Assembly: GCA_964577395.1 (NCBI GenBank)
Contig: CAZNYQ010000008.1
Span: forward strand, 57,319 to 121,318
Reading direction: 5' to 3'
Source: an uncultured Candidatus Saccharibacteria bacterium
GTDB lineage: Bacteria > Patescibacteriota > Minisyncoccia > JBAYJV01
Length of the DNA: 64,000 nt
The notes below the pieces were generated by a model. It was not told where the DNA came from. It searched no databases and worked only from the letters and a program-made list of their open reading frames with translations. Positions 3,320 to 5,223 of the stretch are shown piece by piece (position 1 is the first letter of the stretch; the number at the start of each line of letters is the position of its first letter). Position numbers and translations under genes: made by a program.

Positions 3320-3913
3320 ATGCAAAATAAATCATTAAAACCAACAGAGCAAATTCAAGCCTCTAAAAATCTCTGGATTATTATACTTTTTATTATTATT
3401 TTAATAATTATAAGTAGTGGCATGTATTTATGGCATCAATTAAGCCTAAAAAAAATCAATCAACATTCACAACAACAAATCATCCAATTAACAAATCAAA
3501 TTAACAACTTACAAAAAGAAAATAGTCGCCTCAAAGAAATAGAGCAAACAGGCACAACTACTTTTAAAAATTCGTTAAATAATATTCAATTTCCAGTCAT
3601 AGCATACGGCCGACCAGGGCTTTTACATAATACCGAAACAGGCTTAGAAGAAAAGAAAAACTTAGAAGAGAAACTTATTAATCCCTATGTCGATTATCAT
3701 AAAGAGAATGACCTTAATCTCGTTGCTATGTATATTACAGTCCCTCAAAATATAGGGGAAGAGTACAAAGTTGTTGCAATTTTTGGAAATGGTACTGAAC
3801 AATTCCTTTTTGGAGCACGAGAGCAATCCTATGACTACTGGAAGCCTGGTTGTATGGGTCCTTGTGACTTCTCAGAAGAATTTAAGGAAAAATATCCCCA
3901 AATTGTAGAATAA
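3320..3913 (+). CDS. Hypothetical membrane-anchored protein with coiled-coil and a C-terminal globular domain
   Basis: N-terminal TM (LWIIILFIIILIIISSGMYLW), coiled-coil heptads (QLTNQINNLQKENSRLKEIEQ), then about 120 aa of globular sequence. No recognisable family. Confidence 0.55.
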   Translation: MQNKSLKPTEQIQASKNLWIIILFIIILIIISSGMYLWHQLSLKKINQHSQQQIIQLTNQINNLQKENSRLKEIEQTGTTTFKNSLNNIQFPVIAYGRPGLLHNTETGLEEKKNLEEKLINPYVDYHKENDLNLVAMYITVPQNIGEEYKVVAIFGNGTEQFLFGAREQSYDYWKPGCMGPCDFSEEFKEKYPQIVE

Positions 3914-4191
3914 TATTTTATCCATACAAGATATTAAAAAAGACTAACAGCAATAGAAACAAGAAATAAAAAGGTTGAGCTGGATAAAGCTTGGGAAGTC
4001 AACTGGGCAAGAAGAATTATTATTGCTGTCCTAACATATCTTATCATCGTTCTCTTTCTTATAATAACTCATTTATCAAAACCTTTTATTAATGCTATTG
4101 TGCCAACAACAGGCTTTATTTTATCAACCCTATCATTGTCCTTATTCAAAAAAATATGGATTAGGCAGATAAAAAAGAGACATAAATAAGA

Positions 4192-4224
4192 GTTCTTATG
4201 ATAATAATTAAAATGTGGTAAAAT
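4192..4224 (+). promoter_or_regulatory. Extended -10 promoter candidate (TGgTAAAAT) upstream of the 4253 gene
   Basis: tgtggtaaaat sits about 29 nt upstream of the ATG at 4253. Confidence 0.35.
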
Positions 4225-4252
4225 AGAAATATAAAGAGTGTTTTTTTAATTC

Positions 4253-4864
4253 ATGAAAAAAGAAAGAATTAAGCAATTATCAATCTTAATTATTATATTT
4301 ATTATTTTGCTAAGCGGCGGTCTTTTAATTTTTAAATACTTAACACGTTTACCTATCCCTAAAGATGCTCTTAGCGTTAGGGAAGTTCTTACAGAGCAAA
4401 AATTTAATCAATCTGTAAAAGTGTATGGAAAAGTTAGCAACCTTGGTACGCTTGGTAAACCTGCTTTTGAATTAAAATCAGAAAATGCCACTACTCATGT
4501 ATGGTATGCCCTTATGGCAGAAGATGACGGCACTCCTATGCCAGAAGTAAGTATAGAACACATCAAAAATGATAATTGGGTTATCGTTGAAGGAGAACTT
4601 AAAGATGAAGGAAAATTTCACGACGGTAATATCATTTGGGCAACTTCTATTATTAAGGCAGAAACAAAACATAATAGAGATTTTTTTACAAGCATGGAAG
4701 AATGCCAAGAAGAATGTATTAACATGGGTTATGAAATAGGTAAATGTTACTTAGAAAAAGAGGTTCAAAAATCATATACTCAAATAGATGATTGCCTTAT
4801 CCTTAACTCTGAAAAATGTCATCAAGCAGGAGATTGCAAATGTTATTGTTATAATAAATCTTAA
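4253..4864 (+). CDS. Hypothetical secreted/anchored protein, beta-rich domain plus C-terminal Cys-rich module
   Basis: N-terminal signal-anchor, a central OB-fold-like region (KVYGKVSNLG...VIVEGEL), and a C-terminal 50 aa with 10 Cys (CQEECINMGYEIGKCY...CHQAGDCKCYCY). Confidence 0.55.
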   Translation: MKKERIKQLSILIIIFIILLSGGLLIFKYLTRLPIPKDALSVREVLTEQKFNQSVKVYGKVSNLGTLGKPAFELKSENATTHVWYALMAEDDGTPMPEVSIEHIKNDNWVIVEGELKDEGKFHDGNIIWATSIIKAETKHNRDFFTSMEECQEECINMGYEIGKCYLEKEVQKSYTQIDDCLILNSEKCHQAGDCKCYCYNKS

Positions 4865-4876
4865 AAATTTTCCTTG

Positions 4877-4906
4877 GTGAAGTTAGGAGTCGGAACTTCA
4901 CTTTTT
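4877..4906 (+). terminator. Intrinsic terminator
   Basis: 8-bp stem gtgaagtt/aacttcac with a 9-nt loop, followed by ttttt, immediately after the stop at 4864. Confidence 0.7.
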
Positions 4907-4929
4907 AAAAAGTAAATTCATCTTAATAT

Positions 4930-5223
4930 ATGAAAGAACTAAATACTAAGTCTTATTTTAATCAATACGGCACTTTTCTCTTTTATTCTTTGGTTATTGT
5001 AGGTATTATGATCTATGCCCGCATGACAAGAATATCTTTAGTAGATGTTGATTTAGATACTGTTATTATGCTAATGGCTCTCTTTGTCTTTGCTGATGCC
5101 TTAAAACCTCTTATTAGAAAGAACAAGAGGGTAAATGCCTTTATTTCAGCGGTAATTTTTATAGTTCTTCTTGTCTTTATTTTTGTTTTTCTCTTTATTA
5201 AAAGACCTGATGTTATGACGTAA
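4930..5223 (+). CDS. Hypothetical small membrane protein (3 TM)
   Basis: 97 aa with three hydrophobic helices. No family recognised. Confidence 0.45.
   Translation: MKELNTKSYFNQYGTFLFYSLVIVGIMIYARMTRISLVDVDLDTVIMLMALFVFADALKPLIRKNKRVNAFISAVIFIVLLVFIFVFLFIKRPDVMT

Follow-up and report, generated by a model that had tools for sequence, protein, structure and literature searches.

Do three consecutive genes without a named family, set just upstream of the cell-division genes of an uncultured Candidatus Saccharibacteria bacterium, form a surface module that acts in host-cell contact, or do they merely share an address? The stretch in question comprises 64,000 nucleotides of contig CAZNYQ010000008.1 and is called the window below. 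A first-pass annotation, made from the sequence alone, placed three open reading frames (ORFs), with products of 197, 203, and 97 residues, side by side on the plus strand and took them for a lineage-specific cluster of envelope or secreted proteins. The three frames, here ORF1, ORF2, and ORF3, stand (Table 1); the module does not. The best overall explanation, to which we assign a probability of about 0.55, is that the genes occupy a variable slot filled by unrelated anchored or membrane-embedded proteins, and that ORF2 is a tethered binding unit composed of an oligonucleotide/oligosaccharide-binding (OB) fold and a defensin-like cysteine-rich domain.

Gene Neighborhoods of ORF1, ORF2, and ORF3

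All three proteins were searched by tblastn against 38 loci, three contigs of the same strain being noted separately; the neighborhoods compared were 21 loci of the ORF1 family, 13 of the ORF2 family, the one locus with an ORF3 homolog, and a syntenic contig from a relative, L039. Co-occurrence had been proposed as the check on the module. At none of the 36 loci with a homolog do two of the three genes occur together outside the same strain. Four ORF1 homologs lie on long contigs, and their neighbors are entirely different: BipA, an L1/L11 ribosomal cluster, NUDIX and other hydrolases, or YajQ with MurB.

The 768,753-bp contig L039 permits a comparison of the slot itself. Identity to the window is 82% for FtsZ, 70% for FtsA, 64% for RpoA, 42% for YbeY, and 58% for a piece of a Fic protein. 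The order in the window is decayed RhuM/Fic, a 178-residue transmembrane (TM) ORF, ORF1, ORF2, ORF3, YbeY, FtsA, FtsZ, and RpoA. In the relative it is RhuM, Fic, DUF2177, an 81-residue TM protein, DUF2807 (on the opposite strand), the protein P0038, DNA_alkylation, YbeY, FtsA, FtsZ, and RpoA. P0038 is a homolog of ORF2, which is the only one of the three to be positionally conserved. At a further locus, L004, the ORF3 homolog sits beside the same DUF2807 and DNA_alkylation genes, without an ORF2 homolog. Because of these two comparisons, the region is best read from its sequence as a variable slot with gene flux and not as an operon. Further signs of flux within the window are a 55-nucleotide repeat around the 178-residue ORF and two TM mini-ORFs without start codons in the spacers.

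The Anchor and OB Domain of ORF2

That the proteins belong to no recognizable family is true of the curated libraries. Neither ORF1, ORF2, ORF3, nor their better-conserved relatives match a Pfam or NCBIfam model at the curated cut-off; PADLOC returned zero matches for the three proteins, and no PHROG family was reached at its cut-off. The claim fails for sequence space at large, in which ORF1 has 25 homologs and ORF2 has 171. A word-indexed sequence search with ORF2 recovered only ORF2 itself; the 171 homologs (E ≤ 1e-3; 93 of them at E ≤ 1e-10) come from an exhaustive HMMER search of 1.84 billion representatives. The archaeal carriers belong to Ca. Diapherotrites/Iainarchaeum, Nanoarchaeota, Aenigmatarchaeota, Methanophagales, Bathyarchaeia, Halobacteria, and Methanosarcina, and the bacterial carriers to Dehalococcoidia, Anaerolineales, and other Chloroflexota, with one member of the Peregrinibacteria in the candidate phyla radiation (CPR). 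Thus the ORF2 family is not lineage-specific; the description suits ORF1, whose only named homolog is from Ca. Uhrbacteria, also of the CPR.

The AlphaFold2 model of ORF2, built with 38 family members in the input, has a mean predicted local distance difference test score (pLDDT) of 91.8. A TM helix at residues ~9–30 by hydropathy, part of a helix spanning 2–30 in the model, precedes a region, domain A, in which a helix (42–48) is followed by a five-stranded barrel (strands 54–62, 71–76, 79–84, 109–117, and 127–135). Foldseek comparison of the model with the PDB returns OB domains at probability 1.0, among them Ten1 (E = 1.3e-4), CcmE (4.1e-4), RPA14, and LysRS. Domain A as modeled is an OB fold, and the N-terminal anchor and OB-like domain described at first pass are borne out.

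Domain A is the common element of the ORF2 family. Hidden Markov models of domain A and of the C-terminal, cysteine-rich domain B find A alone in 73 proteins, the order AB in at least 10, BA in at least 4, and B alone in 4; BB, AA, and combinations of A with other domains also occur. The N-terminus is hydrophobic in 127 of 150 family proteins and carries a lipobox-like motif in 74 of the 150, and the Pfam partner domains are all extracytoplasmic: DUF333 (11), the chagasin-type inhibitor I42 (6), META, and FKBP. Location at the cell surface is well supported for the three proteins of the window. Each is anchored at its N-terminus; among the relatives of ORF1 and ORF2 a lipobox may stand in for the TM helix, and the ectodomains of both ORF1 and ORF2 carry invariant cysteines.

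A C-[PSTH]-C-F motif on the second or third OB strand is present in 112 of 150 family members. The C-P-C-F form is absent from ORF2 (GKPAFEL at this position) and from its positional homolog P0038 (LAPTFEL), which may reflect a disulfide or metal site lost in this lineage. Many family proteins (P0044, P0045, P0047, P0055, P0064, P0075, and P0076) also carry, beside domain A, a module of ~90 residues with the consensus RCPYCW.F.FEF.S.HAGYGDRTGQ..AQVIT.H.A...G.V..A..D..WDM..Q. This module matched no Pfam family in the scan and may be another undescribed extracytoplasmic domain.

Among the Foldseek matches, CcmE, the heme chaperone of cytochrome c maturation, is the sole protein (8ce8_E) that shares the architecture of ORF2, in which the OB fold lies outside the cytoplasm behind a TM anchor at the N-terminus. 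Housekeeping homology of this kind had been named as grounds for doubting the surface-protein reading. Membership of ORF2 in the CcmE family was considered and rejected. There is no conserved heme-binding histidine (HxxxY), the histidine of TKHNRD being unique to ORF2 in the family alignment; the NCBIfam match is weak, at 15 bits against a cut-off of 126; and no ccm genes lie near ORF2. For these reasons ORF2 is an analog of CcmE and not a member, and the likeness is the generic similarity of OB folds, which Ten1 and RPA14 fit equally well. The YgiW/YdeI/NirD periplasmic stress proteins (“BOF” proteins) resemble domain A in being small exported OB-fold proteins without a known ligand. Their model NF033674 is matched below threshold by 1 of 12 ORF2-family members (E = 0.005) and not by ORF2 itself.

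The Cysteine-Rich Domain of ORF2

The C-terminal module had been credited with ten cysteines; it contains eight, at positions 151, 155, 165, 181, 189, 195, 197, and 199, and all eight are invariant in 25 copies of domain B. In the model a helix (148–157) precedes three strands (162–166, 176–181, and 195–200). C151 and C155 lie on the predicted helix and C195, C197, and C199 on the last predicted strand, so that the domain displays the paired CxxxC and CxC motifs of the cysteine-stabilized αβ (CS-αβ) peptides. It also contains a GxC γ-core motif, G-Y-E-I-G-K-C165, in which both glycines are kept in at least 90% of the copies, and this segment is the part that HMMER and hhalign align to defensins.

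Profile searches point in the same direction. When the 25 copies were searched as a profile against the PDB, all 17 matches at E ≤ 10 were CS-αβ peptides (best E = 0.005), including arthropod defensins, heliomicin/ARD1, plant defensin-like proteins, nasonin, cobatoxin, and BmK37. In Pfam, Defensin-like (PF24552) is matched by 17 of the 25 copies (best E = 4.6e-4) and Gamma-thionin (PF00304) by 13, all below the gathering score. Comparison by hhalign with ten canonical CS-αβ peptide sequences gave a probability of 48.5% (P = 1.8e-4) over 21 columns of the CxxxC...GxC segment. The evidence on domain B thus points one way, toward CS-αβ, at sub-threshold strength. The motif, the predicted topology, and the consistent weak matches all suggest membership in the defensin superfamily; true homology would be a tentative conclusion.

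Cysteines of domain B are lost in pairs, with one example of each kind: P0036 lacks the third and fourth, and P0058 lacks two of the last four. These losses suggest that C165 pairs with C181, that C189 pairs with one cysteine of the terminal triple, and that the helix pair is linked to the CxC as in defensins.

Domain B shares with the CS-αβ or cis-defensins of bacteria, arthropods, fungi, and plants the CxxxC helix, the G-x-C, the CxC on the last strand, and, as predicted, the succession of a helix and an antiparallel sheet. A fourth cysteine pair is common to domain B, the bacterial classes III and V, and plant defensins. The differences are considerable. Domain B is not a small, secreted, cationic mature peptide of 30–60 residues; it is fused to an OB fold in a TM-anchored protein of 203 residues and is anionic: its net charge is −5 in ORF2 and averages −4.7 over the family. 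It has no cysteine N-terminal to the helix, and an insertion of ~25 residues with an extra strand separates the GxC strand from the CxC strand.

Known bacterial cis-defensins include xanthusin-1 and a set of 74 peptides in five classes (I–V) from Proteobacteria, Acidobacteria, and Actinobacteria (PMC11561630), besides the actifensins (PMC6989792). Domain B differs from the 74 in occurring in archaea, Chloroflexota, and the CPR. The screen that found them removed proteins longer than 130 residues or with TM segments and does not mention archaea (PMC11561630), and none of the papers within reach of our literature search links defensin-like domains to archaea, the CPR, or the DPANN archaea (Diapherotrites, Parvarchaeota, Aenigmarchaeota, Nanoarchaeota, and Nanohaloarchaeota). 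The combination of an OB fold and a CS-αβ-like domain in one anchored protein has not yet been described. We propose tentatively, at odds somewhat short of even, that domain B is a genuine cis-defensin fold, mobile and extracytoplasmic, that usually travels with a dedicated OB domain on lipoproteins and anchored surface proteins of archaea (including DPANN), Chloroflexota, and the CPR.

ORF1 and ORF3

ORF1 is, as first described, a TM-anchored coil with a C-terminal globular domain. Hydropathy and the AlphaFold2 model give a short N-terminus, a TM segment at ~18–40, a long helix rich in Gln, Asn, and Leu to residue 76, and a globular domain at 88–197 (pLDDT ~90); the N-terminus is predicted to be cytoplasmic and the C-terminal domain extracytoplasmic. 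The 25 homologs are 40–64% identical, with 27 invariant columns in the family alignment. What is conserved is the α/β C-domain of ~105 residues, which includes an invariant cysteine pair, C178 and C182 (C-x3-C). The linker and coil are variable, the coil being missing from P0026–P0030, two of which are lipoproteins, and in some homologs a lipobox replaces the TM helix. No convincing structural relative of the C-domain was found. The nearest known folds are the periplasmic domain of ToxR and the β-α-β-β-β folds of the HPF/YfiA type. A ToxR-like periplasmic sensor, which would combine a structural match with a cytoplasmic winged-helix DNA-binding domain, was considered and set aside. On one metagenome contig (L027) two ORF1-type C-terminal domains (3089–3397 and 4175–4441) lie ~1 kb apart, an instance of local paralogy in this family.

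ORF3 lacks cysteine, and its two to three hydrophobic segments are in keeping with the 3-TM mini-protein of the first-pass annotation. Its one homolog, 69% identical, is the protein at L004, in a different gene neighborhood. Because the ratio of nonsynonymous to synonymous substitution rates (dN/dS) is ~0.15 for the two coding sequences compared, ORF3 is judged to be a real gene under purifying selection. The label “Ca2+/Na+ antiporter,” given by JGI (the Joint Genome Institute), goes back to a Pfam match at E = 0.69 and is not supported. ORF1 and ORF3 are members of uncharacterized families without a known counterpart.

A Model of the Slot and Its Alternatives

In this model a small-genome, CPR-type bacterium carries a slot bounded on one side by a decaying RhuM/Fic gene and on the other by the conserved ybeY-ftsA-ftsZ-rpoA block; three unrelated genes would lie in it side by side, each probably transcribed alone. 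In ORF1 the ~105-residue domain would be held outside the cell by a variable stalk and a TM helix, for which some homologs substitute a lipid anchor. ORF2 is predicted to be oriented with its N-terminus inside, given the +3 charge at that end, the length of its hydrophobic helix, and the existence of lipoprotein homologs. It would display domains A and B outside the cell. Domain B would be a CS-αβ-like knot of four disulfides with one extra strand and a fourth cysteine pair. Because the two modules are repeatedly found side by side, whether as AB or as BA, they probably cooperate as a non-enzymatic unit that binds a ligand of the envelope or of the surroundings: a glycan, a protein such as a protease, or the surface of a partner cell. 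A protease is a candidate because chagasin-type inhibitors co-occur in the family and because some plant defensins have inhibitor activity. ORF3 would be an independent small membrane protein.

Several observations weigh against this account. No match of domain B to a defensin model attains a curated or conventional significance threshold: the best PDB E value is the 0.005 given above, the Pfam scores lie below gathering, and the hhalign probability is under 50% over its 21 columns. The canonical N-terminal cysteine of three-disulfide defensins is absent. P0038, which shares domain A with ORF2, has just the second half of domain B and a different cysteine-rich tail; the cysteine knot is therefore itself variable and is not essential to the role of the gene in this slot. 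As for the slot, many of the comparison loci are short contigs, where the absence of a neighbor is weaker evidence, and the relative may carry homologs of ORF1 and ORF3 in another part of its genome. The window is assigned to the CPR on the strength of one named ORF1 homolog, low G+C, and the 769-kb contig of a relative.

The resemblance of domain B to CS-αβ defensins and scorpion toxins invites the idea that ORF2 is a tethered antimicrobial or toxin and ORF3, a small TM protein directly downstream in the classical position of an immunity gene, its immunity protein, as in bacteriocin loci. Antibacterial defensins of bacteria do exist, as actifensin/AMSIN illustrates (PMC6989792), and yet xanthusin-1, itself a bacterial defensin, showed no antimicrobial activity (PMC11561630). 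Domain B is anionic, unlike active cationic defensins; ORF2 would stay tethered, since a cleavage site is not evident in it and the homologs are lipoproteins; and there are ORF2-family loci without ORF3 homologs and an ORF3 homolog without an ORF2 neighbor. A toxin–immunity pair is accordingly very improbable. More generally, because domain B is anionic and tethered, a classical cationic antimicrobial role is unlikely, and it would not act as a diffusible membrane-disrupting peptide. A metal-binding cluster (Zn, Fe-S, or metallothionein-like) deserves more attention, since the eight invariant cysteines include a CxCxC run, most copies of domain A carry the extra CPCF motif, and the family occurs mostly in anaerobes (Methanophagales, Bathyarchaeia, and Dehalococcoidia), as would suit organisms of anoxic sediment. 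It is nonetheless unlikely: every profile match is a disulfide-stabilized CS-αβ peptide, the predicted helix and sheet, in which CxxxC sits on the former and CxC on a strand of the latter, have classical disulfide geometry, cysteines are lost in pairs while the rest are kept, and the domain lies outside the membrane.

At the level of the locus, the three genes might form one co-functional and co-regulated module for attachment to a host cell. They share a strand and a stretch of 1.9 kb, all encode envelope proteins, and the arrangement is stable across several samples of the strain. We regard this as improbable, given the separation of the three genes outside the strain, the four well-resolved and wholly different ORF1 contexts, and slots that keep only the ORF2 homolog (L039) or only the ORF3 homolog (L004); spacers of 339 nucleotides (ORF1–ORF2) and 65 nucleotides (ORF2–ORF3), a promoter-like motif for each gene, and a hairpin with a T-run after ORF2 tell against it as well. 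With ftsA 2.1 kb downstream, ORF1 could alternatively be a divisome protein of the FtsL/FtsB/DivIC type with a leucine-zipper-like coil. It shares the type II topology and coiled-coil stalk of these proteins and of the phage Rz i-spanins in its N-terminal half, and there are sub-threshold matches to FtsL (TIGR02209, E = 0.002) and, in 6 of 26 family members, to DivIC; PHROGs gave weak Rz-spanin-like matches on the TM segment and coil. All of these matches are restricted to the non-conserved residues 16–81, and the conserved C-domain has no counterpart in FtsL/FtsB, DivIC, or the spanins. Since the FtsL score is 18 bits against a cut-off of 42.45, the coil is unconserved and lost in P0026–P0030, ORF1 homologs do not lie beside division genes, and the relative keeps the same ftsA-ftsZ block without an ORF1 homolog in the slot, a divisome role is highly improbable. 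Finally, low G+C, start-less TM mini-ORFs, a decayed Fic gene nearby, and the failure of the word-indexed search to find any relative of ORF2 might suggest that the frames are spurious, or are decaying, and have no functional product. This is scarcely credible, being refuted by conservation: homologs of all three proteins exist, ORF1 with its invariant columns, ORF2 with its large family and confident model, and ORF3 with its low dN/dS.

Local Features of the Window

The features of the slot and its border are collected in Table 1. ORF1–ORF3 have the lowest G+C content of the window, 25.6–28.4%, as against ~31–33% elsewhere. Each exact protein sequence forms a singleton cluster at 90% identity, and copies from the same strain are present on several contigs of sediment metagenomes.

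Table 1. Positions in the window of ORF1–ORF3, their domains, and flanking features
Feature	Coordinates	Strand	Size or position	Description	Basis
ORF1	3320–3913	+	197 aa	bitopic membrane protein	ORF list, hydropathy, homologs, AlphaFold2
ORF1 conserved extracytoplasmic domain	3581–3910	+	residues 88–197	β-α-β-β-β core, tail KYPQIVE	
ORF2	4253–4864	+	203 aa	predicted N-in anchored protein, OB fold and 8-Cys defensin-like domain	ORF list, homologs, AlphaFold2
ORF2 domain A	4364–4663	+	residues ~38–137	predicted OB fold	Foldseek, AlphaFold2
ORF2 domain B	4685–4858	+	residues ~145–202 (58 residues)	C-x3-C-x9-C-x15-C-x7-C-x5-C-x-C-x-C	
ORF3	4930–5223	+	97 aa	small membrane protein	ORF list, hydropathy, homolog, dN/dS
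Extended −10-like motif TGGTAAAAT	4216–4224	+	29 nt before ORF2 ATG	putative promoter element	pattern search
Similar extended −10-like motif	3304–3312	+	before ORF1	putative promoter element	pattern search
Similar extended −10-like motif	4847–4855	+	before ORF3	putative promoter element	pattern search
Hairpin	4876–4907	+	after ORF2	9-bp stem (3 G-C, 1 G-U), 9-nt loop, T5 run	
Decayed RhuM/Fic (Doc-type) gene	1623–2564	+		stops in all frames, frameshifts; upstream border of variable slot	
Multi-TM ORF	2631–3167	+	178 aa	between decayed RhuM/Fic and ORF1	
Direct repeat	2518–2572 and 3158–3212		55 nt, copies 640 nt apart	91% identical; brackets 178-aa ORF	

The extended −10 element reported ahead of ORF2 is present and belongs to a class of motif that is enriched in the window: TGNTAWAAT occurs 34 times, about two-fold above the expected 18.7 ± 4.6, and 1 of 100 shuffled sequences reached 34. 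This enrichment suggests that promoters independent of a −35 element are common in the source organism. The motif before ORF1 ends 7 nucleotides from the ATG and would therefore imply a leaderless or nearly leaderless mRNA. The “strong terminator” after ORF2 is less than was claimed. The hairpin has a folding energy of −9 kcal/mol, no more stable than shuffled sequence (z-score −0.19), and was not called by a terminator scan; it is possibly a weak intrinsic terminator. Frames that are open but lack a start at ATG, GTG, or TTG occur in both spacers, at 3938–4190 for a two-TM peptide and at ~5342–5485 for a single-TM peptide. They could be what is left of decayed membrane-protein genes, or else genes that use non-canonical start codons.

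A decayed toxin gene was said to adjoin the cluster. The RhuM/Fic gene is real and decayed, its Fic piece, which retains HPFVDGNKR, scoring 38.7 bits where the cut-off is 24; the gene is not immediately adjacent, since the 178-residue ORF, for which no homolog was found, lies between. At the equivalent position of L039 (2775–3767), RhuM (238 residues) and Fic (73 residues) are separate called ORFs, and because of this the gene appears to be decaying specifically in the lineage of the window. The decayed Fic gene has the first copy of the 55-nucleotide repeat as its 3′ end, and its last 15 codons are encoded again in the second copy. The repeat resembles the trace left by an insertion or duplication. 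A contig from another sample (L003) ends exactly at the second copy; this reflects a break in the assembly rather than a variant with a deletion.

An Rfam scan of the whole 64 kb gave no family, tRNA, rRNA, and riboswitches included, at the gathering score. Cumulative GC skew reaches a maximum near 28–30 kb and falls steadily thereafter, and the sign of the AT skew is reversed in this part of the window as well (~26000–32000). A switch point related to replication or to strand orientation may lie here.

Implications

As a gene cluster the locus is ordinary, a variable slot of unrelated envelope genes. It does bring to light two uncharacterized families with well-predicted structures: the ~105-residue surface domain of ORF1, and the OB surface domain of ORF2 that is repeatedly paired with an eight-cysteine knot. 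The interest of the locus lies almost entirely in the second, that is, in the OB plus defensin-like architecture and in the distribution of its family over archaea, Chloroflexota, and the CPR.

If domain B is indeed a CS-αβ domain, it would be the first defensin-type domain family reported from archaea and the CPR, and an unusual one in being tethered, anionic, and part of a multi-domain protein. The known distribution of the defensin scaffold would gain archaea, Chloroflexota, and the CPR, and the prokaryotic origin proposed for the scaffold would be extended beyond myxobacteria and actinobacteria. The scaffold would seem to have served at first to bind at surfaces and not to kill, and searches designed for small, secreted, cationic peptides would be seen to miss tethered versions embedded among other domains. 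In ultra-small symbionts, such a domain could take part in cell–cell contact. Host recognition by the CPR and DPANN is largely unexplained beyond type IV pili, and disulfide-stabilized surface binders of this kind are candidates for contact with the partner cell.

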